Virus record (IMG/VR): IMGVR_UViG_3300031111_000236
DNA length: 64,000 nt
Strand: one strand, 5' to 3'
From: an uncultured virus (IMG/VR IMGVR_UViG_3300031111_000236)
Taxonomy: Duplodnaviria; Heunggongvirae; Uroviricota; Caudoviricetes
Shown: positions 1 to 64,000 of the stretch, one piece after another
Layout of the letters: each line of letters begins with the position of its first letter
Numbering within the stretch: the first letter of the stretch is position 1
Position numbers and translations under genes: made by a program
Notes under the pieces: model-generated
Database searches by the model: none
What the model was told of the DNA's origin: nothing
The model's input: only the letters and a program-made list of their open reading frames with translations

Positions 1-251
1 CTGTGACGGGTACAGAGATAACAGCGGCATCATACAATTTGGAGCAAGGTTGGAATCTTGTCCCTGTTTACTATGATATTGCTGTCTCGGGTCTCGCTGG
101 TAAGTCCGTGTCGATAGAGGCGGTGGCCTATAAGACCAACGGGGCAAGTAACGTCTACATAAAGGGGCTACAATCACAGTCTGACTATAATCTCAAGAAA
201 GGTGATGGCATTTGGGTGTATGCGAGTCAGGACGTAATTGTGGCCCTGTAA
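1..251 (+). CDS. C-terminal fragment of a surface protein with GWNL module (truncated by window start)
   Basis: LEQGWNLVPV...GDGIWVYA matches the C-terminal module of five other ORFs here. Confidence 0.7.
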   Translation, partial: VTGTEITAASYNLEQGWNLVPVYYDIAVSGLAGKSVSIEAVAYKTNGASNVYIKGLQSQSDYNLKKGDGIWVYASQDVIVAL

Positions 252-304
252 TATATCCAAAAGTTTAATTACTTTGACAGAGAATAGGACTGTGGGATGA
301 TAAA

Positions 305-2416
305 ATGACGAGGATGTCAAAATACTGGCTTTACGGTCTATTTCTGGTACTGGCATTAGTAGCAGTGCTCTTTATCGTAGAATACACTTCTGATGGTGGT
401 GGTGATGCCGCCGCATCTATCACTGGAGACGCACCAACTGGTAATACCTGGCATATTACTACCGACACGGTAGCTAATAATGAAGCTCTTGAGATAGACA
501 ATATCACGATGGACCTTGGTGTGACCCTCAAGCTCAAGAATTGTACTCTTGAGCCAGATGTAAAACCCTACTGCCTGGTACAAGGTGAGCCGTACTCTAA
601 TTTGTACCTCTATGACACTAACATCACTGTCGTTTGGTTCGTCTTTATGGACGCTATACCTAACGAGGACGGGTTTTACGAATACACAAGAAACAGGCCC
701 TTACCTCTGACAGTTAATGATATCAGGTGGAACACTGTGAATCTCTACACTAACAATGCGTACATCGAAAACTGTACTTTTGGATACAACAAGCCTATAA
801 CTGAGGAATCGACCACTCACGACTTTAAAACAAGTTTCTTGAGACATGAGTATATCAACTGCACTTTTGTCAACTCTTATCTTATCGATGTGTACATGGA
901 CGTTGGTACAATGAAGTCCGACACAATCGGTGGTACTATTATATTTCGTAACTCCACTTGGGAGAACCCAAGATATTATTGTGCCAGAGCTGTAGAGTTT
1001 AACGCCTATGATAGTTTCTTTTTTGGTAGTGATGAGTATAAGGTAGAAGAGGGTAGTACAACTACTGCGTTCAGACCTACGGCTCTCGGTATGATGTCAA
1101 CCGTTACTGGTGAGGTCGAGAGATGCGTTTTTGACAAGCTCACGAGTGTCGGACTTTTGAGATGGATATCGCCGAGAGCTTACATAAATGACACAATCTT
1201 CAGAGACGTGTCTTACGTGGCTCTCGATACCTGTGATAATGTGAGCATTGAGCTTGCTTTTGAGGTGCGTGTGGATAGCTTTTCGAACGGCGAGATATAC
1301 GGCGGTATCGATTGTATAATTGAGGATGCCTGTGTAAATTCCTATGTAGAGGGAGCTATCGATATAGTGAAGGGTGAGGACCACTATGATTCACCTGGTG
1401 ATTTCTTACTTGCGAACTCTACTCTGAAACAGATAAGGTATGCAGTGCCAGACAAGTCATACGATAATTACGTCAAAAATATCACCATCACGGGGAGTGA
1501 TGTGACTTTCGTTTATTTAGAGAACATCACTCTCACTATGGAAGACTGTGACTGTAACCAGATATACTTGTCAAACGTGACTGCTGATATCTATTCTGTA
1601 GACTTCAAGATTCTTGAGACTTTCGAGAGCAATGTGACGGTCTACTATGAGATAGAGGCCGTTATACACAGTATCGAGAGCACGGTCACAAAAATCTACA
1701 ATGGGACTGGTGGACTTGTACACACAAGTGGTGACAAAACTGTTACCAAGATGCTCCAGGTCTTGTACATCAACGTGACAGACGTTGTGGTAGACACTTA
1801 CGAGTACAGTGTCGAGGTATCTACTCTCTCCGAGGAGCAGACCAAGGATATCGAGCTTGTGAAGGATACCACACTCCACTTCTACATCGGCCCTCTTGTG
1901 CTCGAAGTGAATACCAGGGCCAATCAGAGCGAGGGTTGGGTCATGGTAGGCTTGCCCATTGACGAGTCTATCAGTGCCAGTACTCTTCTGTTCAAGAGTG
2001 TGTTTATAGAAGCAATGTCCGTAGAAATTGCTGGCGAGTATGTCATGGTTATCAAGGACGACACCTCTCCAAACGGTATGGTAGGTGATGACTTCCTCAT
2101 AGAGCCGTTCTCAGCCGTGTATCTCTACGTGATTGACGATATCGTGATAACGTTCGATAACACCGTCTCTGAGTACACTGATGAGTCTATTGAGGTGCAC
2201 GTAGGGTATAATCTCGTATCGCTACCTGAGAGCGTCACAGCGTCCTTCCTGTGCGCCTATAACCCACACATCACCGAAGTTACCTATCGTGATTCTGCAA
2301 CGGGTGAATACCATACTTACAACCCTTTCACATCGACGGCAGATGACGACTTCACGATACAGGCTCTTGCAGGGGTAATCATGCGCTCGACCAAGGACGC
2401 ATACATCCGATTGTAG
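305..2416 (+). CDS. Secreted/membrane-anchored surface protein, probable beta-helix region plus two C-terminal GWNL-type repeats
   Basis: N-terminal hydrophobic helix; IENCTF/FRNSTW beta repeats; EGWVMVG and VGYNLVS. Confidence 0.7.
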   Translation: MTRMSKYWLYGLFLVLALVAVLFIVEYTSDGGGDAAASITGDAPTGNTWHITTDTVANNEALEIDNITMDLGVTLKLKNCTLEPDVKPYCLVQGEPYSNLYLYDTNITVVWFVFMDAIPNEDGFYEYTRNRPLPLTVNDIRWNTVNLYTNNAYIENCTFGYNKPITEESTTHDFKTSFLRHEYINCTFVNSYLIDVYMDVGTMKSDTIGGTIIFRNSTWENPRYYCARAVEFNAYDSFFFGSDEYKVEEGSTTTAFRPTALGMMSTVTGEVERCVFDKLTSVGLLRWISPRAYINDTIFRDVSYVALDTCDNVSIELAFEVRVDSFSNGEIYGGIDCIIEDACVNSYVEGAIDIVKGEDHYDSPGDFLLANSTLKQIRYAVPDKSYDNYVKNITITGSDVTFVYLENITLTMEDCDCNQIYLSNVTADIYSVDFKILETFESNVTVYYEIEAVIHSIESTVTKIYNGTGGLVHTSGDKTVTKMLQVLYINVTDVVVDTYEYSVEVSTLSEEQTKDIELVKDTTLHFYIGPLVLEVNTRANQSEGWVMVGLPIDESISASTLLFKSVFIEAMSVEIAGEYVMVIKDDTSPNGMVGDDFLIEPFSAVYLYVIDDIVITFDNTVSEYTDESIEVHVGYNLVSLPESVTASFLCAYNPHITEVTYRDSATGEYHTYNPFTSTADDDFTIQALAGVIMRSTKDAYIRL

Positions 2417-2417
2417 T

Positions 2418-2450
2418 GAAAATTTTTCAGCGGACGGCTGAAATTTTTTC
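2418..2450 (+). terminator. Inverted repeat with T tract, probable terminator
   Basis: GAAAATTTTTCAGC-GGACG-GCTGAAATTTTTTC directly after a stop codon. Confidence 0.5.
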
Positions 2451-2532
2451 CCTCCCCGCATTGTCTTACAGAAAGTTTAAATAGATTGGTGTGCAATCGG
2501 TAGGTATGGCGTTCCGAAATTTAGAGGGCAAA

Positions 2533-10707: not shown

Positions 10708-10791
10708 TGTGGCCTTGGATATTGTCTTATAAGACTTTCGCCACACTTTTATATATATTAAGGATGATGATTATTCGTTAAGGTGAGTAGT

Positions 10792-37418: not shown

Positions 37419-37724
37419 ATGTACGGAGCGACACATCACGTGAAATTACATCATGACCTCTTGAAGAGGCTGGCTTTTACAAACAGGAACGGTGTATGGG
37501 AACTTAAGCTGAAAGACCCAGATGCAAGTGTCATGTATCAACATGGGACAGTGGAGATATGCTCAAACTCTCTCCAAGTCATCAGGAGTATCGCTTCCAA
37601 GCTCGAAATACCTTTCCAGAGTTTAAAGGTGAATCTCATACTACCAGAGAGAAACGAGCACGGTGGTCTGGTTTTTAAGAAGAAAGGGACTGTGCGAACT
37701 CGGGTTGCTACAACTACAGGGTGA
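37419..37724 (+). CDS. Hypothetical protein
   Basis: ATG about 35 nt after TTTAAATA (37379). Confidence 0.55.
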   Translation: MYGATHHVKLHHDLLKRLAFTNRNGVWELKLKDPDASVMYQHGTVEICSNSLQVIRSIASKLEIPFQSLKVNLILPERNEHGGLVFKKKGTVRTRVATTTG

Positions 37725-40217: not shown

Positions 40218-41555
40218 GTGAACCTTAAACCTATGCTAACTCACGCTAACAGGAGCACAGGCGATGCGCTCCACATATCCGAAGACGGTGTTGTAGCAAT
40301 CATTGGGCGCACCATTATGGTACTTGTCAATGACTACAAGAGGCAGAGGCCGATACCACATGATAAGAGTACAGGTTTTGTGATTTTATCAGACCTGGAC
40401 GACGAGGTTACGGTTCTATCACACAGTCTTGAAAATCGTCAAGTCAAAAGTGTCACGCTCTCGGAGGTAAGAGACCATCACGCAATTTTTCAGATTAATG
40501 GCAAGAAGAAGCTCAAGCTCCCTGTCATTACTAAGGCTGAAGGTCTATCTGATGCACCTTTCACTCCAGAGAGACTCAAAGGTGTCAGGGGCATCTATGG
40601 GACCAGACTTCACGAACCTAATTCTTTCAAAAGGCTTTTGAAGACCATAGAGATGTATTACGAGCAGGTCTTGTTCAGGGTTATCGAAGACGAGTTTCAG
40701 ATGATATTCACTGGTGAGCGGGAGAACGGTACGAGCGGATATTATGCTATCACCATTGGTAGGATGTCAAGGTCGCCCCTACAGGAACAGAGAGGCAAAC
40801 ATATCACGAGAGAGATTCCAGTGATGATGGACCTTCTTGGGAAGCTCGGTAAGGACTCCGTAGTAGACATACATCTCGGAAGACATGAGAAGGACCCTAA
40901 CGGGTCCCCTATAATGCTTTCGCACTCCAGCGGGGCTTATGCCTTTAGAGTGGGCTTTGAGGACGTGAAATTCTTTGAGCTTGAGAAAGACATACCACGA
41001 CTGAACTGGATACATATCGATAATCCTGTCATAACATACGGGTCGCTGGTCGAGATACTGGAGGAGTTCAAGGTTGATAACGTACTCGGAGAGATAGTGC
41101 ATTATTGTCTAAATGCGACATGGAGACAGTGGCGCAAGAAACAACATCGTATCAATCCCTACTACTTTGTGGTATACAACTACTATCTTGACAGTCTTTT
41201 CACAGAGCTTGGTATGACCATGCGTAAGGCAGTCGTTAAGGATGGAAAGGACGTGTTCGACTACTACGTCTACGACAACGAGATATACACCTTTGTTATT
41301 GCTGACGACCTCTTGGTCAAGAGGGTAAACGAGATGTACAGAGATGGTGATTACAAGGTCACTATCAGCAATGGCGACAAAAGGTCCCATTTCCATAATA
41401 CCATCGGCAAGAAGGTATCGGTAAACAAGATTAGGACCTATACCAATAAAAGCACTAAGAACGTCGAGGTGACCATAGTTGATGCTAAGGGTCTGGACAT
41501 CATAGTTGCTACCAAGGATATCACTGCTCGTATACTCGGGGAAAATCTAAAATAG
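40218..41555 (+). CDS. Hypothetical protein, possible divergent PCNA-like sliding-clamp fold with C-terminal extension
   Basis: Segments LHISEDGV, FKRLLKTIEMYYEQVLFRVIEDEFQMIFTG, VDIHLG...PIML resemble clamp patterns; CDS solid, fold tentative. Confidence 0.4.
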   Translation: MNLKPMLTHANRSTGDALHISEDGVVAIIGRTIMVLVNDYKRQRPIPHDKSTGFVILSDLDDEVTVLSHSLENRQVKSVTLSEVRDHHAIFQINGKKKLKLPVITKAEGLSDAPFTPERLKGVRGIYGTRLHEPNSFKRLLKTIEMYYEQVLFRVIEDEFQMIFTGERENGTSGYYAITIGRMSRSPLQEQRGKHITREIPVMMDLLGKLGKDSVVDIHLGRHEKDPNGSPIMLSHSSGAYAFRVGFEDVKFFELEKDIPRLNWIHIDNPVITYGSLVEILEEFKVDNVLGEIVHYCLNATWRQWRKKQHRINPYYFVVYNYYLDSLFTELGMTMRKAVVKDGKDVFDYYVYDNEIYTFVIADDLLVKRVNEMYRDGDYKVTISNGDKRSHFHNTIGKKVSVNKIRTYTNKSTKNVEVTIVDAKGLDIIVATKDITARILGENLK

Positions 41556-50805: not shown

Positions 50806-50891
50806 GCACGGGTGGCTGAGTCAGGCTAAAGCGTTCGCCTTGAGAGCGTTTGACCCTCTTGGGTTTGCAGGTTCGAATCCTGTCCCGTGCG
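50806..50891 (+). tRNA. tRNA-Ser(TGA)
   Basis: GCACGGG/CCCGTGC acceptor, long variable arm, G73; outer anticodon stem mismatched. Confidence 0.8.
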
Positions 50892-51285: not shown

Positions 51286-51288
51286 TTT

Positions 51289-53355: not shown

Positions 53356-53608
53356 GGAGTAGTAGCGGCACTACACCGCTCGTGGAGCGTTATGCGCTGG
53401 CCACAAATCTCAGCTTAATAAGCCCTCGCAATATACGTGAGTTGTGACGGAGGATGTAGGCAGTGGACCCAAGTAGAGTATCCTGTTGACGGGCGGACTC
53501 GCAATACACGTAGTTGTGGCGGAGGATGTAGGGATTCTCGGGTTGAAGGGCAAGGACCGACCCGCCGTTGGGAAAAATGGTATATACTTCTCAGTTCTAT
53601 GTACTCTC

Positions 53609-53944: not shown

Positions 53945-53993
53945 ACACGTAAACTTTTTATAGTACCGTGCCGATAGTCCTGTGGTTACTAAC

Positions 53994-54071
53994 ATGAACG
54001 TAATCCCAACCTTCACGGAAAGAGTCGATAGGTGGCAGGAGCGACCCTGCCGCCATCCGCAAGTACTCTAA
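53994..54071 (+). promoter_or_regulatory. Leader ORF MNVIPTFTERVDRWQERPCRHPQVL upstream of tRNA cluster 2
   Basis: 16 consecutive codons cover exactly the nine amino acids of cluster 2; TTTTTATA at 53955. Confidence 0.8.
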
Positions 54072-54089
54072 TTTTGAGAAGGAAGAGTT

Positions 54090-54164
54090 GGGAACATAGT
54101 GTAGCCTGGTTTATCACGGTGGTCTCCAAAACCACTTACATCGGTTCGAATCCGATTGTTCCCA
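54090..54164 (+). tRNA. tRNA-Trp(CCA), intron-less
   Basis: GTGGT-CTCCAAA-ACCAC. Confidence 0.9.
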
Positions 54165-54207
54165 CTCTATTTTCTCGAAATTTTTGTACCACGAGAAGCA
54201 ACAGAGT

Positions 54208-54281
54208 GGGCCTGTAGGGTAGCTTGGATATCCTGTTGGACTCCTAATCCATTGACAGCGGTTCAAATCCGCTCAGGTCCG
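54208..54281 (+). tRNA. tRNA-Arg(CCT)
   Basis: TTGGA-CTCCTAA-TCCAT. Confidence 0.9.
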
Positions 54282-54294
54282 TTACCAAGAGCAA

Positions 54295-54368
54295 GCTCCC
54301 GTAGTGTAATGGGAAAATCATCCTTGCCTTTCAAGCAAGGGAATCGAGTTCGAATCTCGGCGGGAGTA
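54295..54368 (+). tRNA. tRNA-Glu(TTC)
   Basis: CTTGC-CTTTCAA-GCAAG. Confidence 0.9.
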
Positions 54369-54369
54369 T

Positions 54370-54447
54370 GGGCGTGTATCCGAGCCTGGACAAGGTGCGG
54401 GTCTTCTAAACCCGTTTGCAGGGGTTCAAATCCCCTCACGCCCACCA
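54370..54447 (+). tRNA. tRNA-Arg(TCT)
   Basis: CGGGT-CTTCTAA-ACCCG; encoded CCA. Confidence 0.9.
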
Positions 54448-54458
54448 TCAGCAAGCAT

Positions 54459-54532
54459 GGGCGCATAGTCTAACCTGGATAGGACACCTGGCTACGGACC
54501 AGGCAATGGGAGTTCGAATCTCTCTGCGCTCA
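54459..54532 (+). tRNA. tRNA-Arg(ACG)
   Basis: CCTGG-CTACGGA-CCAGG. Confidence 0.9.
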
Positions 54533-54549
54533 CTAAACATAAGCAAAAT

Positions 54550-54787
54550 GTGGCGGTAGCCGTCGAACGTACCTCTGGTTCCTGACGAGGAACCAAGTCG
54601 GGCACAACAAGTAGGCGGAGCGATTAACCTCAAGTCCGAAGTATCTGGGCTGAAACAATGTGGTTGAAGTCCACCCCATGTATCTCGGTGGGTAGGTCAT
54701 GTGCATGACGATGTGCAGTGACCGATACAATCCAGGTATGAGGTCTCCGAGGGAGAAATAAAGTGGGTTAAATTCCCACCCGCCGCA
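54550..54787 (+). ncRNA. About 240-nt RNA with tRNA-like acceptor stem and T arm
   Basis: GTGGCGG/CCGCCGC-A acceptor; T arm GTGGG-TTAAATT-CCCAC; internal hairpins; sits in a tRNA slot of the array. Confidence 0.6.
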
Positions 54788-54791
54788 CTAT

Positions 54792-54866
54792 GGGGACGTG
54801 GTGTAGCTTGGACCAGCACCCCTGGTTTGGGACCAGGAAACCACAGTTCGAATCTGTGCGTCCCCA
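54792..54866 (+). tRNA. tRNA-Pro(TGG)
   Basis: CCTGG-TTTGGGA-CCAGG; G1:C72. Confidence 0.9.
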
Positions 54867-54890
54867 TTACCCCTCTTGGGGGTGAGTGAG

Positions 54891-55193
54891 ATGAGCAAGC
54901 AAAAACAAACGTCAGACGCAAACAAGGCAATCAAGAACACAGCGAAGGTTCACCTTGACATCAACCACGGTAGGCTTGATGCTGAAGTGGTAATCAACGG
55001 TGTTGGCGTTAAGTTCCTCCGTGAGATGGACGCAGACGCAGAGGTGAAGATGAACAAGGTGGTCGAGAGCTTGATGACTCTCGTCCCTACCCCGTCGTAC
55101 CCGACACCTGATGAGCCTGAAGTTTGGCGTGACCAAGAATCTACTAATGATACCGTGACCCCCACGGTATCTCCTATGGCGGGAGTGGTGTAG
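54891..55193 (+). CDS. Small hypothetical protein within tRNA array
   Basis: GGTGA SD; 3' end overlaps tRNA-His. Confidence 0.5.
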   Translation: MSKQKQTSDANKAIKNTAKVHLDINHGRLDAEVVINGVGVKFLREMDADAEVKMNKVVESLMTLVPTPSYPTPDEPEVWRDQESTNDTVTPTVSPMAGVV

Positions 55194-55250
55194 TCGGTAG
55201 CATCGGAGGTTGTGGGCCTCCAGGGTTGGGTTCGAGTCCCGACTCCCGCC
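55178..55250 (+). tRNA. tRNA-His(GTG) with encoded G-1
   Basis: GGAGG-TTGTGGG-CCTCC; G-1:C73. Confidence 0.9.
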
Positions 55251-55264
55251 CTCTTGAAACCACT

Positions 55265-55349
55265 GATAGGGTGGCCGAGCCAGGTAAGGCGATAGGTTGC
55301 AGACCTGTTGTCTTAGACATCGGGAGTTCAAATCTCCCCCCTATCTCCA
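55265..55349 (+). tRNA. tRNA-Cys(GCA) with long variable arm
   Basis: ATAGG-TTGCAGA-CCTGT; TGTC-TTA-GACA arm; U73 and CCA. Confidence 0.85.
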
Positions 55350-55476
55350 CTCGCACTCGCAACAGACACATGATTTCCAGTGGAAGTCGAGACCACACAC
55401 TGTTGCCACTGGAAACATAGCCAGTCAATTTACAGTGGCAGTGGTGTCACCACACTGTTTCCACTGTAGCAAGCAT

Positions 55477-55552
55477 GGGGCAGTAGTCAAGCCAGGTTAT
55501 TGACAACACCCTTACAAGGTGTAGGTCGGCGGTTCGAATCCGTCCTGCCCTA
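55477..55552 (+). tRNA. tRNA-Val(TAC)
   Basis: ACACC-CTTACAA-GGTGT. Confidence 0.9.
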
Positions 55553-55567
55553 TTTCCCATACGCATT

Positions 55568-55640
55568 GGCCCCTTGGTGTAAGTGGACAACATATCGGGC
55601 TTTGGACCCGATGCTCTTGGTTCGAATCCAAGAGGGGCTA
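55568..55640 (+). tRNA. tRNA-Gln(TTG)
   Basis: TCGGG-CTTTGGA-CCCGA. Confidence 0.9.
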
Positions 55641-55642
55641 CT

Positions 55643-55831
55643 ATGAAGTGCCAGTTCGTTGGCGGTGTCCACGTGGACAAACATCTGCCCAACCCCGAGG
55701 ACTATGAGTGCCATGAGGAGGCTACCCATACCCTTGTGGGTAATCACAAGCAGTGGCACTTCTGTCAGAAGCACTTTGAAGAGGCCAGTGACTTCAAGGA
55801 CTCTGCAAAGCACGAAACAGCAAGCATATAG
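55643..55831 (+). CDS. Small Cys/His protein within tRNA array
   Basis: 62 aa MKCQF...ECHEEAT...FCQKH filling the spacer between the two Gln tRNAs. Confidence 0.5.
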   Translation: MKCQFVGGVHVDKHLPNPEDYECHEEATHTLVGNHKQWHFCQKHFEEASDFKDSAKHETASI

Positions 55832-55901
55832 CCCCTTGGTGTAATCAGCAACATACCAGGCTCTGGACCTGGAGAAGGCGGGGCAGAACCGTCAGGGGCT
55901 G
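55830..55901 (+). tRNA. tRNA-Gln(CTG), atypical D and T loops
   Basis: A1:U72; CCAGG-CTCTGGA-CCTGG; T loop GGCAGAA. Confidence 0.75.
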
Positions 55902-55922
55902 TTAGACAATAAGCAACAAGAC

Positions 55923-55995
55923 GCTCCCGTAGTGTAGTGGTCAACCATTTGAGGTTCTCACCCTCAAGCCTGGGGTTCGAATCCCCACGGGAGTA
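55923..55995 (+). tRNA. tRNA-Glu(CTC)
   Basis: TGAGG-TTCTCAC-CCTCA. Confidence 0.9.
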
Positions 55996-56002
55996 CTCAT
56001 AC

Positions 56003-56074
56003 GCCTCCGTAGTGTAGCGGTCATCATCTTGGTTTGTCAGGCCAGGGACTTGGGTTCAAATCCCAACGGGGGCG
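56003..56074 (+). tRNA. tRNA-Asp(GTC)
   Basis: TTGGT-TTGTCAG-GCCAG; G73; followed by T tract. Confidence 0.9.
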
Positions 56075-56118
56075 TTCTTTTTCTCAAAGTTTTTATACCT
56101 CAAGAGCTTACTCATTAT

Positions 56119-56296
56119 TGGCGAAAAAGTGGTCCCTACCGTGGATAGATAGCCTGTCAATCAGCGGTGGTGGAACATCGCAATCCCAAAGCCATCTGGG
56201 ATAGACCTCAGCGGCGGAGCGTGGTCACATCAGATACACCCGTGACCACAGAGTCCGTCGATGGGACCGCCGAGCGGTGATACGCCGCTCTCGCCA
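56119..56296 (+). ncRNA. Stand-alone structured RNA, about 180 nt
   Basis: Own TTTTATA box (56091); TGGCGA/TCGCCA closing stem; GGTCCC/GGGACC, GTGGTCAC/GTGACCAC and GAGCGG/CCGCTC helices; T tract after. Confidence 0.65.
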
Positions 56297-56368
56297 CTTT
56301 TAATATTATAAGTTTTTGGGTACACCTTATATACTTCTGGTATGATTGTCTTATATCAAGGTGGCTTT

Positions 56369-57412
56369 ATGACCAAGAAAAAGGGCTTTCGAGGCAATCC
56401 CCAGACACACAGGCTCAATGCACACGGAATACATAACGAGAGGGCTTTTGCCTCCTCTTCACCAAGCATGATAAACGTGCAAGCTCGTGCTGTCACACCC
56501 ATACAAAAGAGCCACAGTTACTCAGACAGGTCAGAACCCTCTGGTAAGGTCAACAACGGTGGCTACGTGGACGAGTACCTTGTGTTGGTCGAGAAGAAGA
56601 CGGTGGAAGAGGCTACAATCAAGCCTGGTGACGAGATAGAGATGACCTTCGCAGGGGCTCCCAATGATTTCCCGAGGCCCTGGACTCTCGTTAGTGCCAG
56701 GGACGAGTACTCTACGGTATCCTACAGCAACACCCCAACCGTAGTAGTGCGTGCGGCCAATGGCAAGGAGATGACTCTCAAGAACGCACAGGTGTATAGC
56801 CCACACAAGCCCGAGAAGTCGTTCGGGTATTGGGTCAAGCCCAAGGGCCTCCCCCCGAGATACGAAAAGTACGTGACCATCCAGGACGAGGTAACTCTCC
56901 TCGAACTCATAAAGAAAGAGGACCAAGGCGGTATCAACGAGTACATAGAGAAGATGTACGAGAGGTCTGGAATAGACAAGAAGAAATACCCGCTCAACTT
57001 CTTCAGGGTGGATGTCATTAACGGTCTCTGGTACAAGGGACTCGTGAAGCAAAAGAACAGTCGCATGGCTATCTCCAAGCATGGTGAGAAGGTTCTCAAG
57101 AGTGGGGCTTTCGGCTCTGCTCAGATGCGTGATTGGGAGAAGAACAAGGTTGTTAAGATGGACGATGAGGACATCGAGATATTCGATGCCAAAACCCAGA
57201 AAATGATACGCAAGTACATGAAGAAGGGTAACCTCTACTATATGTTCGGCTTCCTGGTCTTCGAAGATGACAAGTCTCTACGTATCGTCGGAGAGAACGA
57301 CTCTTATGATGATTACACTATCAGGATGAGAACCAAGGACTTTGATAAGGTGTACGATAGACTGGAGAACGCAGACGGTGGCGTTTACGCCACAACCGAA
57401 GGCTGGAAGTGA
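56369..57412 (+). CDS. Multi-domain hypothetical protein with RHG-type leader
   Basis: GFRGNPQTHRLNAHGIHNERAFA. Confidence 0.75.
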   Translation: MTKKKGFRGNPQTHRLNAHGIHNERAFASSSPSMINVQARAVTPIQKSHSYSDRSEPSGKVNNGGYVDEYLVLVEKKTVEEATIKPGDEIEMTFAGAPNDFPRPWTLVSARDEYSTVSYSNTPTVVVRAANGKEMTLKNAQVYSPHKPEKSFGYWVKPKGLPPRYEKYVTIQDEVTLLELIKKEDQGGINEYIEKMYERSGIDKKKYPLNFFRVDVINGLWYKGLVKQKNSRMAISKHGEKVLKSGAFGSAQMRDWEKNKVVKMDDEDIEIFDAKTQKMIRKYMKKGNLYYMFGFLVFEDDKSLRIVGENDSYDDYTIRMRTKDFDKVYDRLENADGGVYATTEGWK

Positions 57413-57416
57413 TGAT

Positions 57417-57680
57417 ATGGCGGACTTCTTTCAAACAGTGGGACTTGGAATTGCTGTAGGTATCTCCGTAGTACTCGGCTTGATACTCGGGTGGGCCATG
57501 TACTTTAACGCTAAGAAGTGCGGCAGGAGCACGGTCTGGGGCATAGCCTACATCATATTCTCGCCAGTGATGACACTCTTGAGCTTCCTGGGGTTCCCAG
57601 GAGCATGGGCTTTCGCCTACCTTCCCTGGCTCATCATAGTCGGATACCTCTTGACAGGGGCCAACAAGTGCTCGACGTGA
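57417..57680 (+). CDS. Small membrane protein
   Basis: Three hydrophobic segments. Confidence 0.6.
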   Translation: MADFFQTVGLGIAVGISVVLGLILGWAMYFNAKKCGRSTVWGIAYIIFSPVMTLLSFLGFPGAWAFAYLPWLIIVGYLLTGANKCST

Positions 57681-57684
57681 GACG

Positions 57685-58071
57685 ATGTACAAGGCCGCCC
57701 TCCTTGGTCTAATTACTCTCCTGGTACTCGCACCATTGTGTATACTTGTAATTGAAGAGTTCAGGGACCAGCCAGACATAGAGGAGACGACTACACTCGA
57801 TTGGTGGTCTGTAGTTCACTTCGGCTCAGGCGTGGTGCTCTTTCTGGTCCTATCAAGGATTGGATTTTCGCCGAGAGCGAATATCATAGTCACTACTGTG
57901 CTTGGCTGTCTGTTTGAGGTGGTCGAGCACCTCCTCATTGAACCTCTTGCCATGTTTGGTGGTAGAGAGCTGGTTTTCAATATAGGGGCAGATATGCTCC
58001 TCGTCTATTTGGGTGCTATCACGGCGATGTGGATATGGTGTCGCAAGACAGAGTGCCCTCTTGATGTTTAG
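57685..58071 (+). CDS. Membrane protein, possible intramembrane metal-dependent hydrolase
   Basis: DWWSVVHF..G, FEVVE, E...N..AD in TM helices. Confidence 0.55.
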   Translation: MYKAALLGLITLLVLAPLCILVIEEFRDQPDIEETTTLDWWSVVHFGSGVVLFLVLSRIGFSPRANIIVTTVLGCLFEVVEHLLIEPLAMFGGRELVFNIGADMLLVYLGAITAMWIWCRKTECPLDV

Positions 58072-59045
58072 TGAGAGTACTCTGAATAGGTTGAGTAGGC
58101 AAGTGCACCCTGTATCAAGAGGACTATCTCATCGACGACCCTCTTGTACTTCTTGATATCAATGCAGTGGATACCGCCAACGTTGACGTGGCCGCCTCCA
58201 CCGTATCTCTTCATGATGTCACCGATGTTTGGGACTGTGCGCTTCTGGTCCTTCTTGAATATGTTCATGCCAACGTTCATCCTCACGAACTCGGGAGAGT
58301 CGCCGTAGAAGCTCACGCTGATGAGATACTCCACCTCGGGGTACTCAGCGTATATCTCGTACAGGCTATCGGAGAACCCTGGTATGTCGCATACGTCAAG
58401 GACGGCTACACCATGCTCCCTGATATCGAGCCTCCTCTTGGTGATGTCCTTGAACGACTTTTGCTTGTCCCTCTTGTCGAAGAACCGCCTCTTGGCCCAA
58501 TCGCTGTTAGCTATATCGCTAAAGCTCTTGCCTCTCATAAGCTCTGATATGACCCAACGCCTGTAGTCGTCGTCCTCTCTTCTATTTCCGCTCCTGAGCG
58601 TGATGGAGATGATACCAGCGGTGCTCGGGTTGAGTACCTCCTCTGGTGTCAGGTCCCCGCTGTCTATCTTGTTGGTGTACTTCAGGATAGACTGGAACCT
58701 CCTGTTGCACGGTAACTTGGAGGCGTACATCCTGTATATGACGGCGGCACAGCTCGGCTCAAGGAACCAGTGCCAGACACCGATACTGTCGTCGTTAGAG
58801 TCGATGTTAGGCTTGTTCGAAATGTGGTGGTCGGCCCAAAGCCCTGCTACTTTCGGTTGCGGGAGGTCGCAGACGATATCCCTCTTGGTCGTGTAGACCT
58901 GCCCTGCTTTCATATCGTTCGGGGTAGTGAAAATAATGTTCTCCACAGGTATCTTGAATATGGTAGCCATGAAGAACCCACTTATCACCCCGTCGAGGTC
59001 GTCGTGTGTAATTATTCTGTCGTATTTGCACATAGGCATCACCAC
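58068..59045 (-). CDS. DHH/DHHA1 phosphoesterase (NrnA/nanoRNase-like)
   Basis: THDDLDG, CDLP, ADHH, GGGGHVNVGG. Confidence 0.85.
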   Translation of the reverse strand: MVMPMCKYDRIITHDDLDGVISGFFMATIFKIPVENIIFTTPNDMKAGQVYTTKRDIVCDLPQPKVAGLWADHHISNKPNIDSNDDSIGVWHWFLEPSCAAVIYRMYASKLPCNRRFQSILKYTNKIDSGDLTPEEVLNPSTAGIISITLRSGNRREDDDYRRWVISELMRGKSFSDIANSDWAKRRFFDKRDKQKSFKDITKRRLDIREHGVAVLDVCDIPGFSDSLYEIYAEYPEVEYLISVSFYGDSPEFVRMNVGMNIFKKDQKRTVPNIGDIMKRYGGGGHVNVGGIHCIDIKKYKRVVDEIVLLIQGALAYSTYSEYSH

Positions 59046-59169
59046 TGATATTGGTGTCAGGAGTTATAATGGGTCGGCGGGAAGCTCGTGTTTTGAAGAC
59101 AATAGAAGTGCACCGCCCTTCCCAAAACCTTATTTACTTCGACCCTCTCTTGATGCTTGATGATAGTCG

Positions 59170-59682
59170 ATGACGTGGAAATGGGAAAAGCTGGAGGCAC
59201 AACTCCTGGCAGTCCGAGCCATAAAGGACTACGCAGTTGTGTCTGGGGGCCTCGCATGGCATTTAATGTCGCCGCCCCACGAAGAGAACAAGAAGGTCCA
59301 CGACCACTCTGATGTGGACTTATTCATAATCCCAGAACACTTCGCCACCGCTATTGAAATTCTGAAGAGCATGGACTTCCACCGATGGTGGACCAGGTAC
59401 GATAACATCACTCCCAACTTCTACAGGTATGGTAAGACCACTACCTGGACCAACGGCAAGAGGGTGAAAACCGAGCTTGACCTATTCGTCCGTAAGATGC
59501 CATACCGCATGGTAGGTGAGTTCAAGGTCATAACACCAGAGGCTCTATTACCTCTGTATCAGGAGTGCCACTCAAGTTCGAGATGTGTAGCCGTACAGTC
59601 GGCAATACAGCTCATGAAGAACGGGATAGACCCTCTTGGGCGAATTGAATTAGTGGAGGGGATACCATGCCGACACTCTTGA
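59170..59682 (+). CDS. Pol-beta superfamily nucleotidyltransferase
   Basis: VSGGLAW...HSDVDLF...ELDLF. Confidence 0.7.
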   Translation: MTWKWEKLEAQLLAVRAIKDYAVVSGGLAWHLMSPPHEENKKVHDHSDVDLFIIPEHFATAIEILKSMDFHRWWTRYDNITPNFYRYGKTTTWTNGKRVKTELDLFVRKMPYRMVGEFKVITPEALLPLYQECHSSSRCVAVQSAIQLMKNGIDPLGRIELVEGIPCRHS

Positions 59683-60635
59683 GCAGGAAGGACTTTCGAG
59701 AGGGAGTCTTCAGAAGGGACGGCGGGGTATGCGTTGTTTGCGGTGAGAAGGCCGCAGATGCCCATCACATCGTTGAGCGTGCCTTATGGAATGATGAGGG
59801 CTACTACATGGAGAACGGGGCCTCAGTGTGCACTAAGCACCATCTCCTTGCCGAGAGCAATCACATACCTCCCTGTGTCGTGAGGAGGTACGCTGGTATC
59901 AAGGATACTGTGGTCCCGAAGAGCTTCGACCCTACTCTTGAGTACGATAAGTGGGGCAAGCCGTTCGTGAACCCGACCAGGGACGACATCAAGTACCCTT
60001 CCACCTTCTATCTGAACTTTTCACCAAGTCAGTATGATGAGGAGGGGAAGGCTGAGAACGTAGACAACAAGGACTTCGCCAGGGTCCCTCTTGTAGCCAC
60101 TATCAAGATGGACGGGGCCTGTTGTAAGCTGACACCAGATTACGTGGCCGCTCGTAATGGTTCGCACGCCACCAAGAAGAGCTTCGATATGCTCAAGGCT
60201 ATGCACCCGAGTTTCAAGTACCTGATACCACAGAACGTGAGGGTATTTGCAGAGTGGCTTTACAAGAAACACTCGATACATTACACGGATGACATGGCAC
60301 TCGGCTCCCTCTTGCAGGTTTTCGGAGTTTACTACGTCGATAAGAGGATATGGGGGTCATGGGACGAGGTAGAGGCAATGGCCGCTACTCTTGGGTTTCC
60401 CACCGTTCCTGTTATTTCGAAGTTCGAGGTCGATACCGAGTGGGAGTTCGCCAACAGGGTATCTAAGATGGCCGAGGACATCGTTGCACAGGGTCACGAG
60501 GGTCTTGTGGTCAGGAACGCCTTCGCCTTTCATTACGGGCAGTTCGGACGCTTCATGGGCAAGTACGTTCGTGCTAATCATATTCAGATAAAGGACGAAG
60601 ACGAGCGTACTATCATACGGAACGAGACTGTTTGA
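59667..60635 (+). CDS. HNH-type domain fused to ATP-dependent RNA ligase
   Basis: CVVC...AHHI...NGASVCTKHH; ligase motifs KMDG, FAEW, FGV, EGLVVR, KYVR. Confidence 0.8.
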   Translation: MPTLLSRKDFREGVFRRDGGVCVVCGEKAADAHHIVERALWNDEGYYMENGASVCTKHHLLAESNHIPPCVVRRYAGIKDTVVPKSFDPTLEYDKWGKPFVNPTRDDIKYPSTFYLNFSPSQYDEEGKAENVDNKDFARVPLVATIKMDGACCKLTPDYVAARNGSHATKKSFDMLKAMHPSFKYLIPQNVRVFAEWLYKKHSIHYTDDMALGSLLQVFGVYYVDKRIWGSWDEVEAMAATLGFPTVPVISKFEVDTEWEFANRVSKMAEDIVAQGHEGLVVRNAFAFHYGQFGRFMGKYVRANHIQIKDEDERTIIRNETV

Positions 60636-60689
60636 GCATCGTCCCACAACCCTTAAATATCATCGAGACATAATCAAGAGGGAGCAGAG

Positions 60690-60773
60690 ATGACTCACTT
60701 TACCTATATCGGGACCGCTATAACGGGCGGAACATACGCCAAAACCGCAATTAAGAGCGGTAATGGGCAGTAG
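60690..60773 (+). promoter_or_regulatory. Leader ORF MTHFTYIGTAITGGTYAKTAIKSGNGQ upstream of tRNA cluster 3
   Basis: 23 of 26 non-start codons are amino acids of cluster 3; CTTAAATA at 60652; GGGAG SD. Confidence 0.8.
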
Positions 60774-60884
60774 AATCCCGATGAAGGTGAAGTTCTTGTA
60801 GAAATTTTTTCTGCGTCGCTGAAATTTTTCAAAGAGGGCCTCGCCCTCTCGGTGTTCTTCTTCCATTAGTCGCTCGTAGAGATT

Positions 60885-60959
60885 GGACCCGTGGCCAAGT
60901 TAGGGACGGCAGTGGGCTTTTAACCCACCAAATCCAGGGTTCGAATCCCTGCGGGTCCG
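60885..60959 (+). tRNA. tRNA-Lys(TTT)
   Basis: GTGGG-CTTTTAA-CCCAC. Confidence 0.9.
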
Positions 60960-60970
60960 CTCTATTTTGT

Positions 60971-61044
60971 GGGTCCATAGCTCAGTTAGGTTGAGCAGGG
61001 GACTCTTAATCCCAAGGTCGGGGGTTCAAATCCCTCTGGACCCA
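60971..61044 (+). tRNA. tRNA-Lys(CTT)
   Basis: GGGGA-CTCTTAA-TCCCA. Confidence 0.9.
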
Positions 61045-61138
61045 TTGACCCGAGGTTTACGTCGCAGGGCTGTATCGCAGGTTGCGACGAGGATGAGGTG
61101 GCGACATCCTTCACTCACCTGCGTCGATACGCAACCAT

Positions 61139-61211
61139 GTCACTGTGGCCAAACGGTGAAGGCACTCGGCTGTTAACCGAGAGATTGCAGGTTCGAATCC
61201 TGTCGGTGACG
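61139..61211 (+). tRNA. tRNA-Asn(GTT)
   Basis: CTCGG-CTGTTAA-CCGAG. Confidence 0.9.
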
Positions 61212-61226
61212 TTCAATCATACGCAA

Positions 61227-61333
61227 GCACGGGTGGCCAAGTTGGTAAGGCACTCATCAGGGTGGTGCAAGTCCACGTACAAAATAATCAGCACTGTTGA
61301 GAAGGACCGTGGGTTCAAGTCCCACCCCGTGCG
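61227..61333 (+). ncRNA. tRNA-like RNA with the anticodon loop replaced by a larger structured insert
   Basis: Perfect acceptor, D and T arms; about 39 nt where a 7-nt anticodon loop should be. Confidence 0.7.
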
Positions 61334-61350
61334 TTCAATCGCAACACAAT

Positions 61351-61429
61351 GGGAGTATAGCATAGCCTGGGATTGCGCCAGAGTGAAGTCTTGGTCATTG
61401 CGGGAGTTCAAATCTCTCTGCTCCCACCA
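61351..61429 (+). tRNA. tRNA-Phe(GAA), atypical anticodon arm
   Basis: CCAGA-GTGAAGT-CTTGG; encoded CCA. Confidence 0.75.
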
Positions 61430-61433
61430 TCAT

Positions 61434-61507
61434 GGGCTCGTAAGTCAGTTAGGGAGACTACCTCTCCTGCAAAGAGGAAGCCGAGGGTTCAATTCCCTCC
61501 GAGTCCA
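61434..61507 (+). tRNA. tRNA-Ala(TGC), C33
   Basis: G3:U70; CCTCT-CCTGCAA-AGAGG. Confidence 0.9.
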
Positions 61508-61513
61508 CTATAT

Positions 61514-61587
61514 GCCACCGTAGCTAAACTGGATAAGGCAGTCGCCTTGTAAGCGACAGATTGGGGGTTCGAGTCCCTTCGGTGGCT
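61514..61587 (+). tRNA. tRNA-Thr(TGT)
   Basis: GTCGC-CTTGTAA-GCGAC; U73. Confidence 0.9.
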
Positions 61588-61601
61588 CTTACAAACGCAA
61601 C

Positions 61602-61672
61602 CTGCTCATGGTGTAGTGGTAGCACGGGTGGCTGTAGACCTCCAAGCGGGAGTTCGACTCTCTCTGGGCAGA
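61602..61672 (+). tRNA. tRNA-Tyr(GTA), archaeal/eukaryal type
   Basis: C1:G72, short variable loop, GGTGG-CTGTAGA-CCTCC. Confidence 0.9.
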
Positions 61673-61677
61673 TTCAC

Positions 61678-61751
61678 GGGCTGTTAGCCAAGCTGGTAAG
61701 GCGTTCGGCTCATAACCGAAAGACTCGGGGGTTCGAGTCCCTCACGGCCCA
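61678..61751 (+). tRNA. tRNA(CAT), probably Ile2 rather than Met
   Basis: TTCGG-CTCATAA-CCGAA; GGGC acceptor start like tRNA-Ile(GAT); ATA codon present in the cluster leader. Confidence 0.8.
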
Positions 61752-61764
61752 TTAGATAAGCAAT

Positions 61765-61837
61765 GCTGGCGTGGCTCAGGCAGTAGAGCGTCGCTCTGGT
61801 AAGGCGAAGGTCGTGGGTGCAAATCCCATCGTCAGCT
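61765..61837 (+). tRNA. tRNA-Thr(GGT), atypical T loop
   Basis: TCGCT-CTGGTAA-GGCGA; T loop TGCAAAT. Confidence 0.85.
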
Positions 61838-61840
61838 TTC

Positions 61841-61867
61841 CAAGTGATATCAAGTGATATCAAGTGA
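61841..61867 (+). repeat. Tandem 10-bp repeat CAAGTGATAT x2.7
   Basis: Direct reading of the spacer. Confidence 0.8.
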
Positions 61868-61873
61868 ATCCAA

Positions 61874-61948
61874 GGGCGTATGGCGCAGTGGTAGCGCACT
61901 CGCCTGATAAGCGAGAGGCCGTGAGTTCAAGCCTCACTACGCCCACCA
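61874..61948 (+). tRNA. tRNA-Ile(GAT)
   Basis: CTCGC-CTGATAA-GCGAG; encoded CCA. Confidence 0.9.
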
Positions 61949-61949
61949 T

Positions 61950-62024
61950 GCGAGAGTGGTGTTCAACGGTTCAGCATATCTGGCTTCCAACCAGACGGTC
62001 AGGGTTCGACTCCCTGCTCTCGCA
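61950..62024 (+). tRNA. tRNA-Gly(TCC)
   Basis: TCTGG-CTTCCAA-CCAGA; A73. Confidence 0.9.
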
Positions 62025-62034
62025 CTACAGGAGC

Positions 62035-62223
62035 GTGGTACAATCGGTCTACTGCCCAAGATGCCAGAACAAGATGCGCCGAGTGTTCGACTCGACACAG
62101 ATATGCGACCACTGCCGAACGAGGTGGTCCATAGACGAGCTGAAGATGCCTACCTTGAAGTCCTTTCGTGACAGAATAGACTTCAGGGACATAGAGGAGG
62201 AGTGGGTGTGGAATCCAACATAA
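62035..62223 (+). CDS. Small Zn-ribbon protein within tRNA array
   Basis: CPRC...CDHC; AGGAG before GTG; fills the spacer between the two Gly tRNAs. Confidence 0.55.
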   Translation: MVQSVYCPRCQNKMRRVFDSTQICDHCRTRWSIDELKMPTLKSFRDRIDFRDIEEEWVWNPT

Positions 62224-62295
62224 GCGGTGTTGGTGTTAGTGGTAGCATACCTGGTCGCCATCCAGGAGGGGTGGGTTCGAATCCTGCACACCGCA
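62224..62295 (+). tRNA. tRNA-Gly(GCC), C33
   Basis: CCTGG-TCGCCAT-CCAGG; A73. Confidence 0.85.
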
Positions 62296-62420
62296 CTGGC
62301 CCCTGGCCTATACAATAAGGAGGTGGTACGTCGAGTACGAAAAGAAGTGACACCAGGGGGACGGGGTTCGTCCTCGTCCCCACCCATTTCTTTTTATATC
62401 TCGTGCGTGTAGGATTGCTC

Positions 62421-62969
62421 ATGGAAGTCACTATCGAGATAACACAGTGGTGTGATAGAGGATGTCCCTACTGTTCGAGTAATGCTACAGAGGGCGGGAA
62501 GCATCTGTCTTATCACGATATTCACACTTTTCTTCAGGACGTGTACAAGAAGCACGGCATCTCCAGGATAAACATATCAGGAGGCGAACCTCTCGCTCAC
62601 CCAGACTTCTACATTATCAAGAGGCTCTGTGACAAACTTTGCGATGAGGTTTGGGTCTACACTAACGCTATCCAGAACATCATATTCAATGCTGACTGCA
62701 TGAAGGAAGTCCGAGTACACGCCAATGTGTGTATGACGGCTGGTGACAAGTACATACCGAAGAACGTCGAACAGGTCCACCTCTTGAAGGCCGTTCATAA
62801 GGGCCGAGCAAAGGACATGGAACTGCCCAACATCAAGGCTTCTGGGAATTTTTTCGAAGGTAAGCACGGTGGTTGCTCAAAGTGCGAACACGCCCTTTTA
62901 CAGGCTGATGGTAAGATAGTAGAGGCCCCGTGTAAGAAGGATTACCAATGCTCTATCAAACAGCAGTAG
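62421..62969 (+). CDS. Short radical SAM protein
   Basis: CDRGCPYC, ISGGEP, YTN; C-terminal CxxC...PC. Confidence 0.85.
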   Translation: MEVTIEITQWCDRGCPYCSSNATEGGKHLSYHDIHTFLQDVYKKHGISRINISGGEPLAHPDFYIIKRLCDKLCDEVWVYTNAIQNIIFNADCMKEVRVHANVCMTAGDKYIPKNVEQVHLLKAVHKGRAKDMELPNIKASGNFFEGKHGGCSKCEHALLQADGKIVEAPCKKDYQCSIKQQ

Positions 62970-63433
62970 GAGAGGTAAACGTCACCTATCACCCCATCAG
63001 CTTCGATGACCTTTATTTTGAGGACCTTGAGACTATCAAGAGCTGGTGCAGACTGCCATACAGGAACTACAAGGGGTGCAGGAACGCTAAGGACTGCTCG
63101 TACTTCAGAAACGACCTACAAGAGGTTCTCCGAGAGCACAAGCGACTCTATCTTGTCTGGTGCGATTGGAACCTCGAAGAGTACGCTATTCGCATGAAGA
63201 AAAAGCATCCCGAGTGGTCTGATAGGAACTGTCGCAACCTCTTGAGGTGGCAGTCATCACTCAAGAGTACGCTCCGCAAGTTTATCGAGAGCCGAATGAT
63301 GGGGTGTACGCCATATTGGAACGCCGAGGGTGGAGGAGTCAACTTCTACAGGACGATGCCTAAGTTCGGAGTACCTCTTGAGCTACCACGTGACCTGAAG
63401 AAGGTACGACTCATAGTCGTCGTAGGATGCTGA
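62948..63433 (+). CDS. Cys-containing predicted metal-binding protein (DUF2284-like, tentative)
   Basis: WC..PY...KGC....C and EGGGVNFYRT. Confidence 0.45.
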   Translation: MLYQTAVGEVNVTYHPISFDDLYFEDLETIKSWCRLPYRNYKGCRNAKDCSYFRNDLQEVLREHKRLYLVWCDWNLEEYAIRMKKKHPEWSDRNCRNLLRWQSSLKSTLRKFIESRMMGCTPYWNAEGGGVNFYRTMPKFGVPLELPRDLKKVRLIVVVGC

Positions 63434-63508
63434 ATTGTTACTTATTGTCTTACTACGACGAACAGTTCGTCCGAAACTTTAAATAGTTCGCCGTGCGTTT
63501 GAGATTCG

Positions 63509-64000
63509 GTGAGCAAATTGACAGGCGACAACCAAAGAAAAAGCAACAAGAAGCAAGAGTTTTTCCTTCGTGGGTACTGCGTGCTGAAAGGTATCGGGAA
63601 GAACACCGACAAGTTCCAAGTGTGCCGAGTAGGTGACTGCCAGAAATCTGCGAAATCTGCAAAAGGCACTCTTCTCATAAACATCTACCATCAGAAAAGG
63701 GAAGAAATGCCTGACTCCATAGAGGATGCCAAAAAGGAGATTCTCAAAATGGCCGCAGATGACAAGTACTGCCAGAGAGTTATATCTGGTAGTCCCATAA
63801 CAAACGGCCACAGAGGAAGAGTAGTACCGATAGTTTTCGGTACGACAGAACTTCTTTACGTTACTCACAAGGAAGCCTGTGATGAGGCTGGTGTGGAGTT
63901 CGACAGAGACGCAAGCAAGAACGCTGATTGGGACGATATGGCGCACTATTTCCTCTACAGCACCACAAGGATGGTCGTGGGTTCCAGGATAAAGAAGAGC
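63509..64000 (+). CDS. Hypothetical protein, truncated by window end (not in ORF track)
   Basis: GTG start about 25 nt after TTTAAATA; 164 codons open to the window end (MSKLTGDNQRK...). Confidence 0.6.
   Translation, partial: MSKLTGDNQRKSNKKQEFFLRGYCVLKGIGKNTDKFQVCRVGDCQKSAKSAKGTLLINIYHQKREEMPDSIEDAKKEILKMAADDKYCQRVISGSPITNGHRGRVVPIVFGTTELLYVTHKEACDEAGVEFDRDASKNADWDDMAHYFLYSTTRMVVGSRIKKS

Follow-up and report, generated by a model that had tools for sequence, protein, structure and literature searches.

A strand-biased heptamer, CCTCTTG, enriched about ten-fold in a 64-kb window of a predicted archaeal virus and private to it as far as tested

The 64,000-nucleotide stretch analysed here (hereafter the window) comes from an uncultured virus of the Caudoviricetes (IMG/VR record IMGVR_UViG_3300031111_000236), and it raises the question of why a single heptamer, CCTCTTG, with its reverse complement CAAGAGG, is so abundant in it. 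A preceding sequence-only reading had counted by eye about 60 CCTCTTG and about 30 CAAGAGG, which was slightly too low. By exact search, the window contained 110 copies, 69 on the + strand and 41 as CAAGAGG, i.e. 1.72 per kb or approximately one site per 580 bp. All the sites given earlier as examples (10101, 14311, 50855, 54872, 55250, 58434/58470/58488, and CAAGAGG at 35391 and 36011) were present. The chance level for both strands at uniform composition was 7.8, in agreement with the earlier figure of about 8. In 100 dinucleotide shuffles of the window, 10.58 ± 3.13 copies were obtained (largest 21), and 110 was never reached. The 69 copies on the + strand compared with Markov expectations of 2.6, 3.8, 5.5, and 11.8 at orders 0, 1, 2, and 3, respectively. 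The excess of CCTCTTG is thus about 10-fold over chance.

The word in coding sequence and in a genome purged of restriction sites

The coding density of the window is 90%, and a set of 58 crude genes, 54 of them on the + strand, was used for the codon-level nulls. Synonymous codons were shuffled within each gene 300 times, which kept the proteins and the per-gene codon usage fixed. The genes contained 59 sense copies compared with 5.6 ± 2.4 in the shuffles (maximum 15), and 42 antisense copies compared with 16.1 ± 3.4 (maximum 26). Shuffling the order of whole codons gave expectations of 3.7 sense and 10.2 antisense copies. CCTCTTG was the top-ranked 7-mer under the synonymous null (z 22.6, ratio 10.5), and the next unrelated word family (CTATCA) reached a z of about 9. 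The excess therefore persists when protein and codon usage are held fixed, and the earlier view that codon bias is an unlikely cause is borne out. A dicodon-preserving shuffle would keep most of the signal, because the word covers two codons plus one base.

The window is also marked by the loss of other words. GATC, CTAG, CCGG, and CGCG were each present in 0 copies, compared with 317, 290, 175, and 113 expected, and GCWGC was likewise at 0 compared with 113. Among the 64 hexamer palindromes, 38 were absent and the remaining 26 were near expectation. Asymmetric words, such as ACTGGG, CCCAGC, and GAATGC, were missing as well. The set of absent words resembles a list of Type II restriction specificities, and it shows that selection on words has been very strong, suggesting that unmodified viral DNA has faced very many restriction systems. 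Since word avoidance forces codon choices, the synonymous shuffle was repeated under avoidance constraints. When all absent palindromes were forbidden (n = 100), 6.2 ± 2.2 sense (maximum 12) and 16.0 ± 2.8 antisense copies (maximum 23) were expected; when all 248 six-mers absent from both strands were forbidden (n = 60), the expectations were 6.5 ± 2.1 and 17.3 ± 2.8, respectively. With 6.2-6.5 sense copies expected against 59 found, an origin of the excess as a by-product of avoidance was ruled out. Two secondary excesses were seen, one of CTATCA/GATAG-type words (57 vs 17.6 under the synonymous null) and one of GAGCTT/AAGCTC; these are probably side effects of avoiding GATC and GAGCTC/AAGCTT.

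The word itself was sharply defined. The positions flanking the seven letters carried at most 0.18 bit; an A followed at +1 in 49/110 copies, and a G at -1 was disfavoured (13/110). On the + strand, each of the 21 one-base variants was rarer by a factor of at least 3.8, with GCTCTTG (18) and ACTCTTG (15) as the most frequent. As all seven positions matter and the flanks are uninformative, the word is not a piece of a dispersed repeat. Within the genes, it was reflected in codon pairs: Leu-Leu was written as CTC-TTG in 48/168 cases (7.2 expected from codon usage), Pro-Leu as CCT-CTT in 23/82 (6.9 expected), Lys-Arg as AAG-AGG in 43/97 (26.7 expected), and Gln-Glu as CAA-GAG in 20/47 (9.8 expected). 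These four dipeptides were themselves 1.2-1.5 times more frequent than composition predicts. We defined an opportunity as any place where the protein sequence permits the word. In the sense orientation 59/183 opportunities were used, with 21/28 in phase 0 (Pro-Leu-G..) and 37/148 in phase 2 (..C-Leu-Leu); in the antisense orientation the use was 42/114, with 13/21 in phase 0 and 27/75 in phase 2. CCTCTTG is thus written mainly via silent codon choice and fills about one third of the permitted places. The sites do fall in different reading frames, as had been stated, although two main codon phases account for most of them in each orientation (sense 21/1/37, antisense 13/2/27). Taken together, CCTCTTG is very probably a word selected at the level of the DNA.

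Distribution and polarity of the sites

The copies were spread over the whole window, with 2-11 in each of the 16 bins of 4 kb. The gaps between sites followed an exponential distribution (Kolmogorov-Smirnov p = 0.52), i.e. the spacing was random, and the longest gap was 2,301 bp. The position of sites within genes was uniform (Kolmogorov-Smirnov p = 0.50), and the per-gene counts were Poisson-like (chi-square p = 0.37), with only 2 genes longer than 900 nt free of the word. No regular spacing, positional preference within genes, or gene-to-gene patchiness was detected across the window. The random spacing argues against a structural spacing role.

Of the 110 copies, 101 were located within genes. 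In the 6,129 bp outside the crude genes, 6 copies on the + strand and 3 on the - strand were found, compared with order-3 expectations of 1.02 and 0.78, so that the claim of sites in spacers stands (9 copies vs 1.8 expected). Two of the nine, 42939 and 57647, are probably coding, as they fall within open reading frames (ORFs) left out of the gene set. The claim of a site inside a transfer RNA (tRNA) variable arm was also correct. The sites and features concerned are as follows.

37457, 42939, 43640, 50855, 54872, and 57647, + strand: copies outside the crude gene set (exact search)
50764, 51804, and 60675, - strand: copies outside the crude gene set (exact search)
37457..37463, + strand: example of a spacer copy, outside the crude genes
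50855..50861, + strand: copy spanning the variable-arm hairpin (GACCC-UCUU-GGGUU) of tRNA-Ser(UGA) (50806-50893)
54869..54881, + strand: copy in a noncoding mini-hairpin (CCCC-TCTT-GGGG) directly 3' of tRNA-Pro (54791-54867)
41309..41324, no strand assigned: inverted pair of copies 9 bp apart, CCTCTTG NN CAAGAGG
58434..58494, + strand: three copies (58434, 58470, 58488) in 61 bp inside a minus-strand gene, read as AAG-AGG (Lys-Arg) on the sense strand of the gene
58068..59045, - strand: the sole convincing minus-strand gene, 325 amino acids, DHH-like motif, codon log-odds 0.394
11089/11167, 32767/32866, 35391/35456, 41962/42049, and 46489/46587: examples of divergent pairs

The strand split of 69:41 (63:37) was significant (binomial p = 0.0097) and constant over the 16 bins. 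In the + strand genes, the odds ratio over the codon baseline was 20.2 for the + orientation (33.3 in phase 0 and 19.8 in phase 2), and 4.7 for the - orientation (5.8, 2.9, and 4.7 by phase). Selection is thus about four times stronger in odds for the genome + strand, and it is positive for both orientations. The agreement of the odds ratios between phases within an orientation fits a nucleotide-level signal, and their difference between orientations indicates a real polarity.

Because nearly all genes lie on one strand, transcript sense and genome strand are confounded in these figures. The minus-strand gene at 58068-59045 separates them. Its codon log-odds (0.394) compares with a mean of 0.352 for real genes and at most 0.146 for antisense frames. 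In this gene, the genome + orientation was used in 5/5 opportunities and the - orientation in 1/2, which moderately favours genome-strand polarity over transcript polarity, by 2.58 log-likelihood units or about 13:1, from this one gene. The earlier statement that the sites occur in genes of both orientations is accordingly true but thin, since a single convincing minus-strand gene carries it. Furthermore, neighbouring sites 60-120 bp apart tended to be divergent (8 pairs vs 2.8, label-permutation p = 0.0015), a post hoc result that is marginal after correction for about 14 tests.

The virus and the search for the word elsewhere

The window carries signals of the archaeal type. Boxes of the forms ..AAAnnTTTAAATA.. 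and ..TTTTTATA.. were found 25-35 nt upstream of start codons, e.g. before 2491, 6244, 10783, 15774, and 16243; GGTGA-type ribosome sites were present inside operons, and oligo-T runs 3' of genes. We take the upstream boxes to be the B recognition element and TATA box, which together with the GGTGA sites are presumably archaeal signals. In addition, ATTGTCT occurred 12 times on the + and 14 times on the - strand, compared with about 2 expected, often near the TATA boxes (e.g. in the 2440s, 6200s, 10720s, and 16220s), and it may be a promoter-associated element. The proteome was non-halophilic (median isoelectric point 6.5, Lys 6.6%).

Almost no window protein was matched in PHROGs, Pfam, or NCBIfam. 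Those that were matched included two MoxR-type AAA/von Willebrand pairs, a PrsW/Rce1-like protease, a beta-helix protein, and a generic radical-SAM protein, whose closest solved relatives are PqqE, tetraether synthase, and MoaA. A total of 30 tRNA genes, serving nearly all amino acids, are arranged in three clusters at 50.8-62.3 kb (50806-62296). The clusters are interleaved with a TnpB-like gene, the minus-strand DHH-like gene, and a fusion of HNH and RNA ligase. For this fusion, the best match among deposited phages was the tRNA-rich haloarchaeal virus HGTV-1, at 38.7% identity.

32081-37340: MoxR-type AAA ATPase of 515 amino acids, followed by an ORF of 237 amino acids, a second AAA ATPase of 340 amino acids, and a protein of 640 amino acids with a weak von Willebrand A match
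10783-14439: protein of 1218 amino acids with a weak von Willebrand A match
51904-53355: TnpB/OrfB_IS605-like gene in the tRNA region

Relatives of the virus were scarce. A protein of 1113 amino acids, encoded on a contig of 184,795 bases, matched only itself in a database of 5.8 billion proteins. A protein of 723 amino acids had one relative (43% identity), on a 57-kb Logan contig, and one of 703 amino acids had relatives at 42% and 30% identity; for these two proteins the distant relatives numbered one to three. Two large proteins gave no match in deposited phages by megablast and tblastn, and scans of IMG/VR with four queries (two window proteins and two alignments) returned no relative. 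The sequence was contained in one marine-sediment metagenome DNA run, at a k-mer depth of about 147, and no RNA run containing it was listed. In the source run no diverged variants were found, only the virus's own contigs at 100% identity. Judged from its signals and gene content, the window is best assigned to an archaeal virus of a nearly orphan lineage. Neither this assignment nor the loss of restriction-type palindromes had been recognised in the sequence-only reading.

The word was then sought in possible hosts and in other viruses. A word-level excess was absent from 809 distinct prokaryote genomes, drawn from Thermoplasmatota, Thermoproteota, Halobacteriota, and a few others, with Asgard, DPANN, and Methanobacteriota outside the screen; these genomes, to which 4 IMG/VR records were added, are a sample and not the host itself. 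The closest full-length relatives of the TnpB-like protein (38-44% identity) were in Methanomassiliicoccales, Thermoplasmata/Thermoplasmatota, and Methanoperedenaceae metagenome-assembled genomes and in short metagenome contigs, which may weakly hint at the host. These assembled genomes contained the word at 0.10-0.25 per kb, compared with 1.72 in the window. None of the TnpB-linked loci (27 from genomes and 80 from metagenomes), nor a stretch of HGTV-1, was enriched (117 sites in 802,803 bases), and a single-protein scan with TnpB for the host gave no match. HGTV-1, the nearest characterised virus, contained the word 8 times over 143,855 bases, and its own strongest heptamer (z 7.1 in the first 50 kb) was not comparable to CCTCTTG.

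Among 401 genomes of the phylum of G005 and 201 of the phylum of G003, none exceeded about 0.3 per kb. Among 201 genomes of the phylum of G405 (Thermoproteota), a subset reached 0.5-0.73 per kb. In this subset G586 had 157 copies compared with 161 at order 3 (rank 8850 of 16,384); G460 had a z of 4.3, G508 a z of 2.5, and G548 and G436 were below 1, with 20-220 kb sampled per genome. Overall, the five had z from -0.3 to 4.3, an excess of 1.3-2.3 times over the synonymous null, and an orientation bias reversed compared with the virus. They were rejected as hosts sharing the word, as their levels are compositional and come from a codon usage rich in AAG, AGG, CTC, and TTG. Raw k-mer screens thus need caution, because in some genomes such codon usage is by itself enough to bring CCTCTTG/CAAGAGG to 0.5-0.7 per kb.

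A scan of IMG/VR for a triple-site pattern returned at least 118 stretches, and the 117 loci analysed were mostly tandem repeats. The best among the matches listed, G612, had 100 sites in 168,972 bases compared with 15 for the control, yet only 23 compared with 22.4 at order 3 in a 36-kb sample, in which the word ranked 6726, the sense excess was 2.7-fold, and no protein was similar to the window; it was rejected. The IMG/VR record behind it, a 169-kb contig classed as a provirus, had a word family of its own, GCTCCCG/CGGGAGC, with 25 copies in about 20 kb compared with 2.4, which may be a repeat array. As far as tested, CCTCTTG is private to the virus. In the literature, with subscription journals lying outside the coverage, we found neither this word nor any private hyper-abundant word of an archaeal virus described; the papers found, among them PMC3784561, PMC8022716, and PMC6286503, deal with Chi, KOPS (FtsK-orienting polar sequences), and restriction avoidance in general.

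Candidate roles of the word

The sequence-only reading had proposed a genome-wide site for a packaging or condensing protein, a methylase, or recombination of the Chi or HIP1 type. The genome-wide DNA-level site is supported by the results above, but the proposed list does not narrow to a single choice. We speculated that CCTCTTG would be recognised on the viral chromosome by a DNA-processing machine that travels along the DNA and reads its sequence. By analogy to Chi, the word may serve as a mark of self that stops or modulates an end-resecting helicase-nuclease, either viral or of the host, so that viral DNA would be spared or repaired. Both orientations would be useful, since breaks expose two ends, and the bias could come from an asymmetry of replication or packaging. 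A biased enrichment of both orientations would fit machines entering from either side of a break. Moreover, the purge of restriction-type sites points to DNA cutting as a dominant pressure on this genome, and the word is private, being absent at the word level from the 809 genomes, HGTV-1, and 108 TnpB-linked or other loci. We give this polar, Chi-like mechanism a tentative probability of roughly 0.3.

Several points weigh against it. No window protein matched a nuclease, helicase, methylase, or DNA-binding family, where the window is 64 of 184.8 kb. To our knowledge, RecBCD and AddAB, the only known readers of Chi, are generally missing in archaea, and we know of no Chi-like word in archaea; the literature search turned up none either. 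The strand bias is mild (63:37, p = 0.0097), no switch of polarity was seen in 64 kb, and the evidence that polarity follows the genome strand comes from one gene. A host nuclease would predict a Chi word common to virus and host, and no host-like genome with the word was among those screened.

Among known word systems, CCTCTTG resembles Chi, the uptake sequences, and HIP1 in its behaviour, yet it lacks a defining feature of each. Chi of RecBCD/AddAB is an octamer in E. coli and a word of 5-8 nt in other bacteria. Like Chi, CCTCTTG is a short asymmetric word, over-represented against composition-aware nulls, spread through genes by silent choices, and with a strand preference, and by analogy a protection of DNA ends would be plausible for it. 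The Chi-like polar role is the part of the earlier proposal that the strand preference would fit best. Unlike Chi, which is a host word copied by phages, CCTCTTG was at excess in no screened genome, and the host chromosome expected to share it did not appear in the sample. In addition, the predicted host is archaeal, where RecBCD/AddAB are generally absent. CCTCTTG is also denser (1 per 580 bp) and its fold excess larger (about 10-fold) than those of Chi in E. coli. According to PMC3784561, Chi is enriched in phages without RecBCD inhibitors.

The DNA uptake sequence (DUS) of Neisseria and the uptake signal sequence (USS) of Pasteurellaceae resemble CCTCTTG in occurring at about one copy per kb on both strands, in preferred frames, and in bending dipeptide usage. 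Nevertheless, they are 9-12 nt long with an extended consensus, are features of competent cellular lineages, and show no strand polarity, whereas CCTCTTG is a viral 7-mer without flanks. The KOPS and the SpoIIIE recognition sequences (SRS) are asymmetric words whose orientation matters to the translocase; they show a very strong skew that flips at dif, and they are much rarer. In contrast, CCTCTTG is at 63:37 and shows no flip in 64 kb (35% of the contig). Mycobacteriophage stoperators are 13-bp asymmetric repressor sites, mostly intergenic and oriented with transcription, unlike CCTCTTG, with 101/110 copies intragenic and a polarity that follows the genome strand in the minus-strand gene. A restriction-modification target does not fit, as unmodified phage DNA avoids such sites and CCTCTTG is 10-fold enriched in a genome where restriction-type words are at zero. 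HIP1 (GCGATCGC) of cyanobacteria is likewise a hyper-abundant genome-wide word and is possibly tied to methylation, but it is palindromic and cellular, whereas CCTCTTG is asymmetric, strand-biased, and viral, so in form the word is unlike HIP1.

The word may instead be a non-polar site, kept abundant in the manner of HIP1, to which a viral protein of chromatin, condensation, or packaging would bind, or which a viral DNA methylase or base-swapping enzyme would target. The raw use of opportunities is similar in the two orientations (59/183 vs 42/114), the information content over seven positions is typical of a protein site, and the divergent pairs at 60-120 bp (8 vs 2.8, p = 0.0015) are as expected for a protein using two inverted sites. 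We nevertheless consider it rather unlikely, because one strand is selected four times more strongly (odds ratio 20.2 vs 4.7), the spacing is random, not regular, and the excess of divergent pairs was noticed post hoc and is marginal once corrected. No methylase, TGT/DpdA, or QueC/D/E-type gene was found in the window, and the radical-SAM protein is nearest to PqqE, tetraether synthase, and MoaA. A base-swapping or 7-deazaguanine enzyme thus had no support among the window proteins.

The word may also be a private priming site, at which a virus-encoded primase or primase-helicase would start lagging-strand primers, so that only viral DNA would be efficiently replicated. Its density of one per 930 nt on the + and 1,560 nt on the - strand is within the range of phage Okazaki fragments, and the biased presence of the word on both strands is what unequal use of the lagging strands would produce. 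Against this, known primase sites are trinucleotide cores (GTC for T7 and GTG for pRN1) rather than strict 7-mers, no recognisable primase is present in the window, and the Poisson spacing leaves gaps up to 2,301 bp. This makes a priming role improbable.

Less probable again is a signal at the RNA level, with an RNA-binding or RNA-modifying factor that would recognise CCUCUUG in transcripts. The favoured orientation is indeed the mRNA sense for most genes (54/58 crude genes on the + strand). However, the complement is enriched in the mRNA sense too (42 vs 16.1), 5/6 copies in the minus-strand gene are antisense to its mRNA, where the genome-strand model is favoured by about 13:1, and copies occur in a tRNA and in spacers. 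Finally, it is hardly credible that the word has no function and arose secondarily through codon or dipeptide usage, the avoidance of restriction sites, a dispersed repeat, or mutational or repair bias: heavy avoidance does create secondary excesses (GAGCTT/AAGCTC and probably GATAG/CTATC) and in some Thermoproteota a density of 0.5-0.7 per kb is reached through composition alone, but the codon-preserving and avoidance-constrained nulls give 5.6-6.5 sense copies vs 59, the flanks show no conservation as a repeat would, spacer DNA is enriched too, and one-off variants are neither purged nor raised as a repair drive would leave them.

Chi, KOPS, DUS/USS, and HIP1 belong to the small number of genome-wide signals known from cellular chromosomes, and each of them led to a specific DNA-handling machine. 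In the same way, the presence of so strict and polar a heptamer, private to an orphan archaeal virus, suggests a DNA-handling machine not yet described. If its reader is a virus-encoded nuclease or helicase, this would be the first system of the Chi type in an archaeal context, with a word that the host does not share. With about 1.7 sites per kb and 21/28 of the Pro-Leu-G.. opportunities used, the signal is sufficiently strong to be used as bait for this reader. In a wider and still speculative view, private identity words, spread over the whole genome, may be present in large viruses of hosts from all three domains, and the viruses' own DNA machinery would read them to tell viral from host DNA. 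If this is true, the present virus would be a clean case of it, with a strict polar 7-mer that takes as much as 75% of the silent opportunities of one codon phase, is absent from the screened hosts, and stands in a genome from which most restriction-type palindromes have been deleted.

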